Of a stretch of DNA of 43,416 nucleotides, positions 6,807-25,300 are shown in pieces. This stretch comes from a bacterium (GTDB lineage: Bacteria; Babelota; Babeliae; Babelales; CAIQNR01). The stretch is taken from positions 1-43,416 of the forward strand of contig CANNMA010000002.1 in NCBI GenBank assembly GCA_947505805.1. Reading direction: 5' to 3'. Both the position numbers and the translations under genes were made by a program. A model generated the notes under the pieces. It ran no database searches, was not told the DNA's origin, and saw only the letters and a list, made by a program, of their open reading frames with translations. Numbering within the stretch: position 1 is the first letter of the stretch; the number at the start of each line of letters is the position of its first letter.

Positions 6807-6834
6807 AAAAAAAAGAGCCCCGCGATTGCAGGGC
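6807..6834 (-). terminator. intrinsic terminator downstream of the 826-aa gene (copy A of a repeated hairpin)
   Basis: Minus-strand RNA GCCCUGC-AAUC-GCGGGGC (7-bp stem including one G.U) followed by UCUUUUUUUU. Lies about 100 nt after the stop at 6939. Confidence 0.75.
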
Positions 6835-6938
6835 CATAAGTTCATTAATGTTCGAGACAAATTTCTTTCTAAAGTCATCCCGAGAGATACGAGATCTTTA
6901 GATCGAGTAACAGTGGGGATCTCAATCCAAATAAAAAA

Positions 6939-9419
6939 TTATTGAGCTGCAGCCATTCGTTTTTGATAATGCTCTCTAACCCAAGCTATAACTTCTTTTC
7001 GTCGCTTTACATATTTCATATATTTTTCTGTTCGTTGATAAATGGTCGGATCAATACCTTTAATCTTAACACCAGCCTCTTGTGCAGCTTTTGGATCAAG
7101 AATTTTTTTAGAAAGAATAATGGCAAACTCATGGTAAAATGGTGCTTGATTATGATTATCAGCTATTTCAACAACATCAGTCGTTTCTTTGCCATTAATC
7201 ATAATTGGTTTAAGCGGCCCACCTGATGTTGTTGAGTACGCAAGTTCACGAGCAGTATCTCGAGACATAGAAATCATAAGCAGTCTTCCAAAATCCCCCT
7301 GATCTTTAATCGCGTCTTCATACAGATCGTACAATTCATCAAAAACTGTTTTATCTCCTGAACTCATTGTACTAAGTAACATTTGATATTCTTCAAAAAG
7401 ACCTAAATTTTTAAACATTTCTTGTAACGCATTCTTAAAATCATATCGTTTCTGACCAACAGTTTGATCTGAGTTGGTAGTAACATAGTGCCATGAATTT
7501 GATCCGGAACTATTTGCAAATAGATGCAAATTCGCAAACAATATTGAAAATCTATAGTATTCAAAAGTTTCTTTAGTAAGCCCATTTGTACAAAGCATAG
7601 ACACTTCTTCATCAGTTAAAAATGAGTCATTTGAAAATCGAAAAGGAACAAAATTATCTCCAAAAAGAGCTTCTCTTTCTTGAACACAGTGCGAAAGTTC
7701 AGTAAACCATTCTCCTAAAAATGCCCATTGTGAATGCTGCCCATGAAAAAAAACAATGCGATCATCTTTGTATTCCTGCTCAACATACTCTGTAATATCC
7801 CACAACAAAGCTTTTAGATTTTCACTTTCTTTTTCTTCTATAACGCACAGTATTTTAGAAAAATTTTTAATAAAAAAATCTGAAAATAAAGGACCTTTTA
7901 TTCCTGAAGACATTTTTTTAGATAATAACGGTACAAATTCTACATAAGTATCACTCAAAAATTGCAGCATCTCTTCTTGACTATAATAAAAATTCATCAG
8001 ATAGAATTTCTTTTGTACTGTAAGATTATTACCGCATATCTCAAATACAAGATGCGCATAGTACATAGCTTCTTCTTTTGAAAAATCTTTAAATATTTTT
8101 TCAAAATCTAATTGACTCAAGACGTTTGAATCTTTTACATCAACACAATCAGCTAAATAGTCTAAACGATCCTTATAAGATAAATTCTCTAAAATATTAT
8201 TTTCAAGCAATCTCCATGTTACCAATTTACTAGCCATACTCTCTTTTAAAGAATTTTCTTTCCAATGTTTCCATACACTTAGCAGCATCCTCTCAGATTC
8301 TTTTTTAGGTAGATAAAACCCTAAATACCTTACAATATCATCTGCCTGATCTAAATCTAAATCATCAATCAACATCACTGCTAACATTTTTTCAGTATAA
8401 TTTATTTGGTCATTTTCACATGAACAATAAAAAGACTTGCCTATCTTTAATTTTTCTTCAAAAGAAATTGTTTTTGATTGAACTAATAAATCAAATAGTA
8501 GCTCCACTAATTGATCTTTTATTTTGTTTTTATCTTCTATTAATGTTCTCCAATCGTGATTAATAGACATAAACAAAGACCATCGCATGTCTCTAAAAAA
8601 ATCACACATATTTGAAATAATACTCTCTATAGTTGAAACATCTTGAGGAAATTTAAAAAATTCTTTTAACAACTGACAAATACACAGTATCTTTTGATCT
8701 TCAGAATCAACCAAATCAAGAAATAAAGAGCATGATTCGACAGTAGAAACAAGCGGTCCATTAAAAACTTTTGAAAGAACTAATAATCGATCTTCCGGCA
8801 AAACCATATCCCATAATTTTTTTAAAATTTCTTTTGGATTTTTATCAGGAAAATATCGTGAATTTGCCTGACCTTTTTCCCATAACAATGCTATACCACC
8901 GTGCTCCAGTCCCTGATCAAAATATTTTTTAATCAAAGCATTATGTTCTTCTTTAGAATCAGAAGATCCTTGAATTTTTTCAATAATCCGTTCACCTTCA
9001 CTAATCCAATCAAAAACAGCATCACTTGGTTTATACAGCCAATAATCAAAGTCATCTAATGCCCCTAATGTTACAAAACCCAACAATGGAAAAAAGCCTA
9101 AAGAAAAATCTTGGTTTCCCTTAGCTTTAGACGACGCAGCAGTAACTACTGGTAACGCTGAATACTTTGTATTGATAAATGATTTTGGGGCAGCAGGAAC
9201 TCGTGATTTTATATCCGCATGAGCAGCAGATTGAGTGGAGCTGGTAGCTTGAGCTGATGATCCACCAAAACGAGACGAAACTTCTTTTGCAGCAACAACT
9301 GATCGTTTAAATGCATCACCAAAACATGAAGCCGCTTGTCTAAAATAGGCAGCTTGAACAGGTGCAAAAGCCCCTGCCATAAGCATAACCATGCTTATTA
9401 TGTATAACTTTTTATTCAT
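6939..9419 (-). CDS. large hypothetical exported protein (826 aa), no family recognised
   Basis: Long uninterrupted ORF. N-terminal signal-like MNKKLYIISMVMLMAGAFAPVQAA. Has its own terminator. The antisense ORFs in this span are short. Confidence 0.75.
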   Translation of the reverse strand: MNKKLYIISMVMLMAGAFAPVQAAYFRQAASCFGDAFKRSVVAAKEVSSRFGGSSAQATSSTQSAAHADIKSRVPAAPKSFINTKYSALPVVTAASSKAKGNQDFSLGFFPLLGFVTLGALDDFDYWLYKPSDAVFDWISEGERIIEKIQGSSDSKEEHNALIKKYFDQGLEHGGIALLWEKGQANSRYFPDKNPKEILKKLWDMVLPEDRLLVLSKVFNGPLVSTVESCSLFLDLVDSEDQKILCICQLLKEFFKFPQDVSTIESIISNMCDFFRDMRWSLFMSINHDWRTLIEDKNKIKDQLVELLFDLLVQSKTISFEEKLKIGKSFYCSCENDQINYTEKMLAVMLIDDLDLDQADDIVRYLGFYLPKKESERMLLSVWKHWKENSLKESMASKLVTWRLLENNILENLSYKDRLDYLADCVDVKDSNVLSQLDFEKIFKDFSKEEAMYYAHLVFEICGNNLTVQKKFYLMNFYYSQEEMLQFLSDTYVEFVPLLSKKMSSGIKGPLFSDFFIKNFSKILCVIEEKESENLKALLWDITEYVEQEYKDDRIVFFHGQHSQWAFLGEWFTELSHCVQEREALFGDNFVPFRFSNDSFLTDEEVSMLCTNGLTKETFEYYRFSILFANLHLFANSSGSNSWHYVTTNSDQTVGQKRYDFKNALQEMFKNLGLFEEYQMLLSTMSSGDKTVFDELYDLYEDAIKDQGDFGRLLMISMSRDTARELAYSTTSGGPLKPIMINGKETTDVVEIADNHNQAPFYHEFAIILSKKILDPKAAQEAGVKIKGIDPTIYQRTEKYMKYVKRRKEVIAWVREHYQKRMAAAQ

Positions 9420-9670
9420 TGAAAACCTCCATTTTCATATATTTTGAATTGTATGAGTACATTAAAAATCCTAATTACATAAGCTTAAACTTATAAAGCC
9501 ATTTTTAATTATTATAATAGAAATTATAATTTTGTAAACAAGTTTTACAAAATGAAATATTATCAATATAAAATAAGCTCATTTAGCGCTTATCCAAAAA
9601 TAGAATTTTACAGAATAAATTACTATTGGTTTAAAAAAACCTTTTCATTAATGCGAACAGCTTATTTTTT

Positions 9671-9926
9671 TATGTCATTACCAGTGAAGTGACAGCGTGG
9701 TAGAGCGTTTTACGCTCTAATAGCGAGAATAAGCGTGTGTAACCCAAACGTAACAAGAAAAAATCATCTTTGATTTCATATAGTACAAACCATTACTATA
9801 AACTCTATTCAAAAAAAATTTATCATAGGAATTTTTACAAAGTAACGTTTGGGTTACACACGCTCAATCGATCTGTCCAGAGTGCATAGCACTCTGACGC
9901 GATCTCATTTCACTGGTAATGACATA
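9671..9926. repeat. 256-bp composite imperfect palindrome (MITE-like element or structured RNA/DNA locus)
   Basis: Outer 18-bp inverted repeat TATGTCATTACCAGTGAA (9671-9688 / 9909-9926). Inner 20-bp inverted repeat AGCGTGTGTAACCCAAACGT (9732-9751 / 9845-9864). Each arm has its own local hairpin (9701-9719 and 9878-9896). AT-rich 87-nt centre. No ORF. Confidence 0.8.
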
Positions 9927-9998
9927 TTTGAGAACTTATTAGTTTGCTTGATAAAGCTTTTATTTAGATGTTGAATTTTTGTATAAATTCATCTCTAC

Positions 9999-10025
9999 AA
10001 AAAAAGAGCCCCGCGATTGCAGGGC
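9999..10025 (-). terminator. intrinsic terminator downstream of the 10056-10373 gene (copy B of the repeated hairpin)
   Basis: Same sequence as 6807-6834 (AAAAAAAGAGCCCCGCGATTGCAGGGCC). A T-run is also present on the plus side (10029-10036), so it could act bidirectionally. Confidence 0.75.
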
Positions 10026-10055
10026 CACTTTTTTTTCAGTCAAGAAAAATTACAC

Positions 10056-10373
10056 CTATTCCATAGAAACTGTTTGCTCTTGAGATCCATCACTGAGTTG
10101 AGCGCTTGATGCTTCTTTAAGAGTCATTTTTGCTACTGCTATTTTTAACAATTCTTCATTAGATTGTTTCAAGCTCTTATGCACATATCCAGCACCAATA
10201 AGTGATTGTGATAGCTCAAAACACCCCACACGACATTGCGGAGACAGTGGTGCATCATATTCTTGCACATCAGTGAGCGGCTTACGTGGTGAATCTGGAC
10301 GATAAAAATCACCTGCCTGAACTAAAGAAAAATTAACTCCAAAAAAAACAATTAACGCAAGTTGTTGCTTCAT
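10056..10373 (-). CDS. small hypothetical exported protein
   Basis: The ORF track extends to 10430, but the internal ATG at 10373 gives a classical signal peptide MKQQLALIVFFGVNFSLVQAG. Terminator about 20 nt after the stop. Confidence 0.55.
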   Translation of the reverse strand: MKQQLALIVFFGVNFSLVQAGDFYRPDSPRKPLTDVQEYDAPLSPQCRVGCFELSQSLIGAGYVHKSLKQSNEELLKIAVAKMTLKEASSAQLSDGSQEQTVSME

Positions 10374-10540
10374 AAAAACCCCTACAGAAATATACATTGA
10401 TCCCAGAAGTGTACAGATTTTATAAAACAATACTACGTTATTTTTGATTTTTTATTACCGAGTCATTGCTGTTGAAAGAAAAAGCTATTTATACTCAGGA
10501 TCATCTAACCTGTGAAAAAATTATTACTCAAGGAGTCATT

Positions 10541-22306: not shown

Positions 22307-25300
22307 CCTCCTTACCGACTTTGCACAAGTCGACCTGCAACCCTAAACTCTGCAATTCTTTAATAAGTACGTTAAACGATTCTGGCAATCCTGGTTCTGG
22401 AATTTCTTCACTTCTGACAATAGATTCATAGACACGATGCCTACCGGTTACATCATCAGACTTATAAGTCAGCATTTCTTGTAACGTGTACGCTGCACCA
22501 TATGCCTCCAATGCCCAAACTTCCATTTCACCAAGACGTTGGCCACCTTGCTGAGCTTTACCACTCAACGGTTGTTGAGTAACAAGTGAGTATGGTCCAA
22601 CAGAACGAGCATGCAATTTATCGTCAACCATATGGTTCAATTTCATCATATAAATAAAACCAACCGTAACAGCTTGATCGAATAAATCACCGGTACGACC
22701 ATCTCGAAGAGTATAAGTCGCGGATTCTGGCAAATCTAATTTTTTCAATAATGGTCGAATGTCTTTATCAAAAGATGGACCTTCAAAGACAGGCACTCTG
22801 TAATGGACACCTTTTTTAGCTGTTTTTTCAGCTAGCATACGAAGTCCATCCGCACCTTCTTCTTTTTCGTATTGATTAATAAAATCTTTACCATAGTATT
22901 CTGATAAAAATTCTTTAGTTTCTTTTTCACTTTGATCAGCAAGCATTCTTTTCAATTGAAGCCCAATTGAACGCCCTGCAAAACCAAGGGCTGTTTCTAA
23001 GATTTGACCAACGTTCATACGAGCAGGAACACCAATAGGGTTCAATACTATATCAACAGGGGTACCATCTCTTAAACATGGCATATCTTCACGTGGAACT
23101 ATAATTGAAACCACACCTTTATTACCATGACGTCCAGCAACTTTATCACCAGCTTGAATACTTCGTTTCATAGCGATATAAACTTTAACCATTTTAATAA
23201 CACCTGAAGGAAGAGGATCACCTTTTTTAAAGCGATTTATCTTTTCTTCTTTAATACCATCAAGAACTTGAATCTGTGTTCTTAGCGATGTTACTAAATG
23301 AATAATTTCAGCATCAATCTTTTTATCACCAACTTTTGTAGACAAGATTTTTTCAATATCTTCAGTAGGTTTTATGATGTGATCAGCTTCTTTTGCAAGT
23401 TTTTTAATCTTTTCAATGGTCATACTGCGAAGACAAATTTGATGTTGAGAAAAATCTTCTTCAAGTTTTTTAATCTGCTTAACCACTTCATCTTTATAAC
23501 GCTTATCTTTACGAATACCGCTTCTAGAAAATATTTTTACATCTGTAACCATACCTTCAACGCCTGCAGAGACACGTAATGAAGTATCGCGAACTTCTCT
23601 AGATTTTTCGCCAAAAATAGCGCGTAACAATTTTTCTTCAGGAGAATACTGAATATCACCTTTAAGAGTAACTTTACCGACTAAAATGTCGCCTCCCTTA
23701 ACACGAGAGCCAACTTTAATAATCCCATCTTCATCTAAAGCAGAAAGAGCTGATTCACCCACATTTGGAATATCGCGAGTAATTTCTTCTGGACCAAGTT
23801 TTGTATCACGAGCATCGACAACATATTCATCAATAGTAACAGATGTTAAAACATCATCAGAAACTAAACGTTTACTTAAGATAATAGCATCTTCAAAGTT
23901 GTATCCATGCCATGGCATAAAGGCAACTAAAAGATTTGCTCCAAGAGCTAATTCTCCATTATCCATAGAAGAACCATTTGTAATGACATCGCCAACTTGA
24001 ACTCGTTGACCCATTTTTACAATAGGCACATGATGAACCCAAGTACTCATACTTGATTTTTGAAATTTCTTTAAATGATAAATATCAACACCACGAGCAA
24101 TCCAATCTTCCACAGTATCAAACTGATCGCGATCAGCGCGAATCATAATTTTATCTGCAGAAACATATTCAACCACACCCGCATGATGAGCTATAAGAAC
24201 AGAATTTGAAGCCTTACCAACTTCTTTTTCCATACCTGTACCAACTAATGGAGCTTCAGTTTGAATAAGAGGAACAGCTTGGCGTTGCATGTTAGCACCC
24301 ATCAAAGCACGAGATGCGTCATCATGTTCTAAAAATGGAATTAATGCTGTTGAAACAGAAACTAACTGCTTTGGAGAAAGATCAATATAATTAAGCTGAT
24401 TAACATCAACAACTTTAAAAGTTCCTTCACGACGAGCAACAACCTCAGTAGTATCAAATGTTTTTGAGCCAGGCTCAACCGCATCAGCTTGAGCAATAAA
24501 TTTACCCGATTCATCAAAAGCATCTAAAAAGACTACTTCATCTTTAATTTTTCCATCCTTAACAGGACGATAAGCAGTTTCAATAAATCCTAAATCATTT
24601 ACCATTGCATAAGTTGCAAGAGATGAAATCAAACCAATAGTTTGACCTTCAGGAGTTTCAATAGGACAAATACGACCATAATGAGAAGTATGCACGTCAC
24701 GTACTTCGTACGTTGCGCGATCCTTCAATACACCACCAGGCCCGAGGGCTGACAAACGACGCTTATGAGCAATTTCTGCAAGAGGATTTGTTTGGTCCAT
24801 AAATTGAGATAACTGACCAGTACCAAAAAACTCACGTAAAATAGCACTCAGAGGCTTTACATTGAGCAAGTCTTGAGGCATTAATGTCCCAAAAGATTCT
24901 TGCATTCTAAAACGTTCTCTTACAATACGTTCTATACGTAAAAAACCAAGGTAGACTTGATTACTTAGAAGTTCACCTACAAGACGAACACGCCTGTTAC
25001 CTAAATGATCAATATCATCCAGTTCACCTTCAGCACGTTCACGTAACCCAATAAGATATTTCATTGTTGCAACAATATCTTCACGAGTTAAACAACGAAC
25101 TTCATTAGAGATAGTCAGTCCCAATTTTTTATTAATACGAACACGACCAACAAGTGTCAAATCATAATAACGCGAATTAAAGAACATATTTTCTAAACGT
25201 TCTTTAATTTCATCAATAGATGAATTATCACCTGGCCATACTTTAACATGAAGCTCTTTTAAAGCCTCATCTTGAGTATAACATTGATCATGAAGCAATG

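Follow-up and report, generated by a model that had tools for sequence, protein, structure and literature searches.

A composite palindrome upstream of an effector-like gene in a Babelota genome, a candidate inverted pair of small mobile elements

We analyzed the first 43,416 nucleotides of contig CANNMA010000002.1 (GenBank assembly GCA_947505805.1), from a bacterium of the lineage Babelota; this whole stretch is hereafter the window. At 9671-9926 the window contains a 256-bp composite palindrome, with no strand of its own, for which the interpretation that we favor, at about an even chance of being right, is a foldback, in which two copies of a small mobile element, non-autonomous and without a gene of its own, lie in inverted orientation. 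The palindrome most likely represents a new family within a familiar class of repeats rather than a new RNA. The host is most probably an uncultured bacterium of the amoeba-symbiont type, and the palindrome a selfish repeat within an effector island that is itself variable. This interpretation starts from features observed directly: the anatomy of the palindrome, the mosaic of identical and diverged segments in its arms, the changes in the local hairpins that preserve pairing, the lineage-specific insertion of the surrounding block, and an insertion with a target duplication in a related Babeliales genome (SRP286056_co1_452), referred to below as L025.

Anatomy of the palindrome

The palindrome is real and far exceeds chance. 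It is framed by a perfect inverted repeat of 18 nt, TATGTCATTACCAGTGAA, at 9671-9688 (plus strand) and 9909-9926 (minus strand), the two copies of block A; further in lies a perfect inverted repeat of 20 nt, AGCGTGTGTAACCCAAACGT, at 9732-9751 (plus strand) and 9845-9864 (minus strand), the two copies of block B. With up to three mismatches allowed, the outer repeat has two matches in the window against 0.05 expected, and the inner repeat has no further site there, with 0.00 expected. The symmetry centers of the two pairs lie at 9798.5 and 9798.0. Apart from a small palindrome at 23897-23928, no other sizeable inverted repeat is present in the 43-kb window.

The two arms, of 84 and 85 nt, form a mosaic: they agree in 40 of the 41 positions of blocks A and B, compared with 25 of 44 (57%) in the stretch between the blocks, a non-random contrast (Fisher p = 5e-6) which suggests that each arm is constrained in sequence at these same two blocks. 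GC content is 44-46% in the arms as against 20-24% in the flanks, and the center (9755-9841) consists of 87 nt with 19.5% GC. All six frames of the palindrome contain stop codons, and none of the gene calls of the source contig falls within it. An earlier examination of the letters without database searches (the sequence-only reading) had described the two perfect inverted repeats, arms only about 60% matched between them, an AT-rich center of 87 nt free of open reading frames (ORFs), and arms richer in GC than the surrounding spacer; all of this is borne out, with the coordinates and chance expectations of the repeats now computed.

Each arm also folds on its own, as had been proposed, into a local hairpin: TAGAGCG-TTTTA-CGCTCTA on the left (9701-9719, plus strand) and CAGAGTGC-ATA-GCACTCTG on the right (9878-9896, minus strand). 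Both can be extended by a lower stem, optionally CGU/GCG in the left hairpin and GATC/GATC in the right one, and these lower stems are unrelated in sequence. Between the two upper stems, three pairs have changed on both sides and none is broken, with C:G replaced by T:A once and T:A by C:G twice; the sequence-only reading correctly recognized a compensatory change and counted one where there are three, which makes the case stronger. As RNA, the whole palindrome folds at -110.8 kcal/mol on either strand (z = -15.5 and -15.0), and as DNA at -66 kcal/mol (z = -13.8); no shuffled sequence folds as stably in either form. The two long stems comprise 38 base pairs, all of them Watson-Crick with no G-U pair, and the two strands fold equally well. 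The folds of single units are marginally better than those of shuffled sequences, with z between -0.8 and -3.0.

A probable third unit in a related genome

With L025 as the guide, a genome whose tryptophanyl-tRNA synthetase (TrpRS, the product of trpS) is 80% identical to that of the source, the best reading is that each arm belongs to one unit of ~105 nt and that the palindrome consists of two such units placed tail to tail. The left unit (9671-9777, plus strand) is made up of block A, the hairpin, block B and an AT-rich tail, and the right unit (9815-9926, minus strand) has the same architecture inverted; the 3' limits of both are approximate. Between the tails lies an AT-rich spacer of ~37 nt (9778-9814) that has no counterpart in L025. 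The alignment of the L025 element covers positions 9672-9776 of the window, and model R1 scores the left unit at 110 bits.

Profile and covariance searches covered 1.57 Mb of fetched loci, with ~330 kb from Babeliales-like relatives as well as the remaining part of the source contig among them, and yielded the L025 match only. The covariance model of the two arms had its sole non-seeded match at L025 6753-6865 (23 bits), with E = 0.022 in 518 kb of loci and E = 0.0028 when only the window and L025 were searched; blastn likewise gave E = 0.022 for this similarity. In Smith-Waterman comparisons, the best place for the L025 element in the window was 9672-9776, with 6 of 150 shuffled sequences scoring as high, and the best place for the left unit in 269 kb of relatives was L025 6733-6864 (1-based), with 1 of 60 shuffled sequences scoring as high.

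This match coincides with a GC-rich insertion of 142 bp (L025 6732-6873, minus strand) between pgm and a DUF502 gene, which is flanked by an 8-bp direct repeat, AAGGAATA. At the same site, the relative L109 has a junction of 5 nt (AAGGAATAAATCTCATG), the P0008 locus also has a 5-nt junction, and L108 has an overlapping junction. The 8-bp repeat together with the empty sites in the nearest relatives of L025 indicates that the L025 piece is a discrete insertion bearing the signature of transposition. We infer that it is homologous to the arms of the window palindrome and is a probable third unit; the sequence similarity alone is suggestive, and the location strengthens the case. All three sequences keep the start ATGTCATyCCCAG, the block B motif AACC(C)ARACGTAAC and an AT-rich tail that ends in GATTT, and in the middle they have a hairpin that differs in sequence and length and retains its pairing. 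In L025 the stem of this hairpin is shorter and there is an added apical extension. In an alignment of just these three sequences, which was itself fitted to the covariance model, pairing in the central hairpin is 100%, with 3 of 7 pairs changed on both sides.

The L025 unit sits in the sense orientation inside an operon spacer and contains an intact ORF of 37 aa, the ends of which (MSSP... and ...EPDVTR) echo blocks A and B. The ORF had no homolog in a word-index search, a method that also missed true homologs of the 826-aa protein described below. A coding role of the unit was considered and rejected: the source genome uses TGA as a stop codon, an in-frame TGA stands at codon 7 of each window arm, and the right arm is out of frame.

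The inserted block and its cargo gene

The window belongs to a metagenome scaffold of 62 kb (ENA ERZ28613056, MEHR18-3, scaffold_503; sample SAMN08297413). The TrpRS of the source is 71-88% identical to those of metagenome-assembled genomes, several of which are labelled Candidatus Babelota or Babeliales and have the wider gene order in common. In several relatives, trpS and a CdaA-like gene (305 aa in the window) are divergent neighbors, and close relatives carry a gene of ~100 aa between the two. In the window, the minus strand reads through a 113-aa gene (10056-10397), a terminator (10026-10007), a spacer of 72 nt and the palindrome, and then through a spacer of ~130 nt, a promoter-like site (9538-9511), an 826-aa gene (9419-6939), a spacer of ~100 nt, a further, identical copy of the terminator (6836-6808) and, last, the promoter region of trpS and trpS itself.

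The two terminators form a perfect 29-bp direct repeat, with one copy (DR2, 9999-10027, minus strand) serving the 113-aa gene and the other (DR1, 6808-6836, minus strand) the 826-aa gene; together they mark the edges of a 3,191-bp block that consists of the 826-aa gene and the palindrome. In L108, the closest relative with flanks (TrpRS 88% identical), a homologous small gene is followed by a single terminator and then by trpS, with no block, and this terminator has the same flanks on both sides as the outer flanks in the window. The single terminator and empty site in L108 indicate that the block was inserted with the terminator duplicated; as judged from this comparison of loci, the block is a recent, strain-variable and lineage-specific insertion.

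The contig ends of a second assembly, as opposed to the reads themselves, are relevant here. Logan contigs are built on a de Bruijn graph with k=31 in which every 31-mer is unique (PMC12424806). In run SRR7054680, the Logan contigs with an exact match to the window (L002 and L106) end at 6807, 9701 and 9999. The 29-bp repeat is too short to branch a k=31 graph by itself, and an additional A + repeat + C junction 31-mer in the reads would produce precisely the ends at 6807 and 9999; these ends fit the coexistence, in SRR7054680, of an allele without the 3.2-kb block and the allele that carries it. The end of L002 at 9701, which is 31 nt into the left arm, implies that the 30-mer 9672-9701 has two contexts in the reads of this run. 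ATGTCAT begins at position 9672, as does the similarity to L025, and the end at 9701 hints at a second copy of the unit elsewhere. A further contig end, at 13634, fits neither a second copy nor a block-free allele.

The cargo gene of the block (6939-9419, minus strand) encodes a protein of 826 aa with a hydrophobic N-terminus that resembles a signal peptide, as seen by eye in the translation. The protein has no match in Pfam, NCBIfam or PHROG. A word-index search made it appear an orphan, a notion that was overturned by an exhaustive search in which its C-terminal ~300 aa proved common to 91 uncharacterized proteins, some of which fuse this domain to ankyrin repeats or to an Exo_endo_phos domain. 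The protein thus appears to belong to an uncharacterized effector-like domain family and has the appearance of a modular effector made by an intracellular bacterium.

The best promoter-like site for this gene, TTTACA-16-TATAAT (9511-9538, minus strand), lies between the palindrome and the gene; promoter-like sites are absent on either strand inside the palindrome and at its ends, and the nearest one on the plus strand (9535-9563, 9/12) is ~110 nt upstream of it. The only terminator-like site near the palindrome is that at 10007-10026 on the minus strand. The sequence-only reading took it to be bidirectional, which is only weakly true: despite A and T runs on both sides, the site is called on the minus strand only, two G-U pairs of that strand become C-A mismatches on the plus strand, and the terminator is in essence one of the minus strand.

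Several observations concern this neighborhood in their own right. Between the palindrome and the 826-aa gene, the AT-rich spacer contains a direct repeat of 37 nt (9543-9579 and 9606-9642, 73% identity) that extends over part of the predicted promoter region. The stretch 6870-6925, at the opposite end of the block, contains a sequence resembling block A, AAAGTCATCCCGAGAGA, which by eye matches block A of L025 at 15 of 17 positions, and then GAGATC...AGATCGA as in the right arm; a third, degenerate unit at this place, as in a composite transposon, was rejected (p = 0.11-0.17, and nhmmer finds nothing there). In a more distant Babeliales genome (L080), the spacer between the CdaA-like gene and trpS contains another composite palindrome, at 9744-9886, with a perfect inner hairpin of 20 nt, outer arms of 18 nt and an unrelated sequence, which may be a terminator or a small repeat. 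In L113, a lineage-specific, GC-rich insert of ~150 nt with internal inverted repeats and no Rfam match (~1385-1530) separates the start of trpS from its conserved promoter region. Neither the L080 palindrome nor the L113 insert is homologous to the palindrome of the window; GC-rich inserts in AT-rich spacers seem to recur across the clade.

Interpretation, rival explanations and known systems

Under the mobile-element interpretation, the two ~105-nt units would stand tail to tail around the ~37-nt spacer, each composed of block A (starting with ATGTCAT), the central hairpin, the subterminal block B (AACC(C)ARACGTAAC) and the AT-rich tail. Blocks A and B would be the sequences recognized by a transposase or recombinase acting in trans, and such recognition would explain why these blocks are identical in both arms while the remainder has diverged. 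We infer that further copies and a mobilizing transposase exist, with the gene of the latter expected to bear ends of the ATGTCATYMCCAG type, and that the hairpin has a role, presumably as a structural requirement of the element family that acts in single-stranded DNA or in RNA. A copy of the unit would be recognizable by ATGTCATTACCAGTGAAGTGACAGCGTGGT or by block B. At its present site, the pair would need no host function; it may have travelled with the 3.2-kb strain-variable block and its effector-like gene, or have inserted into it, and would have at most an incidental effect, as a barrier to, or a processing site for, read-through transcripts.

A bolder version of this interpretation, which we consider improbable, makes the units a mobile family of Babeliales (Dependentiae) with the hairpin under structural selection, similar to REPINs and distinguished by larger units and target duplication, or else a mobile RNA module acting in cis, which would insulate or process the transcripts beside effector genes. 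If confirmed, the family would serve as a marker of recent gene flux in these bacteria, which are obligately intracellular. The palindrome itself marks a spot at which the set of host-interaction genes is changing, the block apparently being present or absent within one population. Only the way in which the hairpin has evolved with its structure preserved goes beyond what is routine for a simple repeat recognized by a transposase; the finding is otherwise ordinary.

Several results weigh against the palindrome being an inverted pair of mobile elements. There is no second copy of the palindrome or the unit in 59.5 kb of the source contig, and in the ~330 kb of Babeliales-like loci there is no further unit besides that of L025. 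The exact 20-mer has no match in 185,579 GTDB species genomes or in IMG/VR, and the exact 18-mer has 21 single matches in JGI metagenomes, none of them with the second arm or extended similarity, which is the level of chance; the exact 18-mer and the gapped pattern of block A followed by block B have no match in IMG/VR either. These seed searches are weak as negatives because exact seeds of 18-20 nt miss diverged copies. A blastn search against plasmids and phages found nothing relevant. Pfam detects no transposase or recombinase gene in the window or elsewhere in the contig sequence covered, and to our knowledge an element of the DDE type has no need for an internal hairpin. The similarity to L025 is statistically borderline: nhmmer built from the two arms alone gives E = 0.15 against L025, the right unit has no significant Smith-Waterman match in the same 269 kb of relatives, and L025 has 9 nt (AAAAAATCA) before ATGTCAT that the window units lack. 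The contig end at 9701 could alternatively be caused by a variant at 9702. Finally, no 8-bp target duplication surrounds either unit or the whole palindrome, where the only direct repeats are TA (inside the palindrome) or TTT, which are uninformative; the sequence-only reading had proposed to look for target-site duplications at other copies, and the probable L025 relative has one. The suggestion, made in the same reading, that the palindrome is a miniature inverted-repeat transposable element (MITE) has gained support: the L025 insertion with its duplicated target, the variable block and the contig break 31 nt into the arm speak for it, and the lack of a target duplication here and the restriction of copies to one known locus speak against it. 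A literature search that combined 'Dependentiae' with 'miniature inverted-repeat' found no paper.

The palindrome could instead encode a structured non-coding RNA (ncRNA), either as one long transcript with two side hairpins between a closing and an apical stem, or as two convergent small RNA genes, one per unit, in which the conserved blocks would be single-stranded and the hairpin structural. The very stable fold (z about -15), the GC-rich arms within an AT-rich spacer and a hairpin that persists although 3 of its 7 pairs have changed on both sides would all suit such an RNA, as would the sense orientation of the L025 unit in its operon spacer, where it folds better on the sense strand (z = -2.5 versus -0.7). 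We nevertheless regard an RNA as unlikely. The sequence-only reading had recognized no known RNA family, and an Rfam scan of 9400-10100 agrees, its best score being 27.5 bits for a plant miRNA hairpin model with a threshold of 139.7 and all matches falling below the gathering threshold; a scan of the L025 unit returned sub-threshold matches only, and tRNA and tmRNA scans found none near the palindrome. Signals for transcription are lacking as well, with no promoter-like site inside the palindrome or at its ends and no terminator-like site flanking either unit, and on the minus strand the palindrome is preceded by a strong terminator and followed by the next promoter. The all-Watson-Crick long stems and the equal folding of the two strands fit identity at the DNA level better than selection on an RNA, and the folds of the single units are marginal; with no Rfam match, no transcription signals and no strand asymmetry, the proposal of a structured ncRNA in the sequence-only reading finds little support. 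Quite unlikely, too, is a functionless relic, an inverted duplication that dates from the assembly or insertion of the 3.2-kb block and is now decaying. Such a relic would be single-copy in all the sequence searched, would have no visible target duplication and would sit in a young, strain-variable block, as is the case here, and the shared symmetry center is what a single inverted duplication would produce. Neutral decay, however, would not leave 40 of 41 identical positions beside 57% identity, nor would it retain a hairpin of 8-9 bp in both arms through three double changes, and the probable L025 homolog is an independent insertion.

Explanations by a role in the expression or rearrangement of the block are, each by itself, less probable still. 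We consider it decidedly unlikely that the palindrome is a regulatory site of the 826-aa gene at which a dimeric or tetrameric regulator binds paired sites, possibly with looping or as a cruciform. Two symmetric pairs of sites do lie 130-410 bp upstream of the predicted promoter of a gene for a secreted, effector-like protein, and what is conserved is sequence identity, beyond complementarity; however, no regulator gene is adjacent, the sites are far upstream of the promoter, and neither the structure-preserving changes in the hairpins nor the insertion of L025 in an unrelated operon spacer is explained. The cruciform suggested by the sequence-only reading is unlikely on general grounds, given that a non-palindromic center of 87 nt strongly disfavors extrusion from duplex DNA. 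Very improbable, in our assessment, is a recombination site of the 3.2-kb block, folded into a hairpin as are integron attC or phage attP sites and served by a recombinase encoded elsewhere. The block is indeed an insertion bracketed by a 29-bp duplication, a coexisting block-free allele would account for the contig ends at 6807 and 9999, the palindrome is 72 nt from one block edge, and block B, as read from its sequence, contains GTGTAAC / GTTACAC, one mismatch away from the attC core RYYYAAC / GTTRRRY. The junctions of the block, though, lie in the terminator repeats, outside the palindrome; 256 bp exceeds the range of attC sites, generally known to be 57-141 bp; no integrase is found nearby; and a 29-bp repeat can be deleted by ordinary slippage or homologous recombination. 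It is extremely unlikely that the palindrome is an inverton, in which the segment between the inverted repeats flips and switches the 826-aa gene on or off. The perfect inverted repeats, together with a size and position that, from general knowledge, resemble those of the invertible promoters of genes for surface or secreted proteins, recall such a switch. Against it, neither strand has an internal promoter-like site and the best promoter is outside (9511-9538), the contig has no invertase, flipping at the 18-nt repeat would break the k=31 graph at ~9688 as opposed to the observed 9701, and L002 carries 13 bases specific to the left arm past the repeat, in the same orientation as in the window.

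Compared with known systems, the palindrome departs from the definition of an inverton in the lack of an internal promoter-like site and of an invertase in the contig and in a contig end that is misplaced for flipping. Palindrome-associated elements derived from IS200/IS605 have subterminal hairpins and are devoid of terminal inverted repeats and target duplication, unlike the window palindrome, with its perfect terminal repeats, and its L025 relative, with an 8-bp duplication. From general knowledge, attC sites are also imperfect palindromes that accompany a gene cassette, and they work as a folded single strand with short conserved boxes and a variable center. The window palindrome differs from them in its length of 256 bp compared with 57-141 bp, in core boxes that match with one mismatch each, in junctions that lie in the 29-bp terminator repeats, and in the absence of an integrase and of a cassette or attC array.

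Closer in shape are REPINs. A REPIN is a REP doublet forming hairpins that is mobilized by RAYT transposases (PMC3337134, PMC3116915); it consists of two hairpin-forming inverted repeats, the variable parts of which keep their pairing (PMC3337134). REPs are short imperfect palindromes, and a REPIN, 89 bp in the illustrated case, is present in hundreds of copies along with a RAYT gene (PMC3337134). The window palindrome has the same doublet-of-hairpins shape. It differs from REPINs in its units of ~105 nt and doublet of 256 bp, its single known locus and the absence of a Y1 transposase from the 59.5 kb of the source contig, and falls outside the definition of a REPIN. The L025 relative also carries an 8-bp target duplication. 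Single-strand transposition of the IS200/IS605 type, to which RAYT is related, is not known to make one.

Bacterial MITEs, for example the Correia elements of Neisseria and the ERIC elements of enterobacteria, are the closest kind along with REPINs; the comparison is from general knowledge. A MITE would also have several copies per genome and an autonomous relative that shares its ends. The differences are that searches turned up no known family with a similar sequence, that homology of the arms extends over ~84 nt and takes in two perfect blocks and a structure-conserved hairpin, as opposed to a terminal repeat of 20-30 bp alone, that one locus is known and the window copy has no target duplication around it, and that the L025 relative is a single, non-palindromic unit. 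The likenesses are that the palindrome is short (256 bp, with MITEs below ~600 bp), non-coding and intergenic, has perfect terminal inverted repeats of 18 bp and can fold as a whole into a long hairpin; that it adjoins a gene the transcript of which it could affect; and that its L025 relative is a discrete insertion with a target-site duplication.

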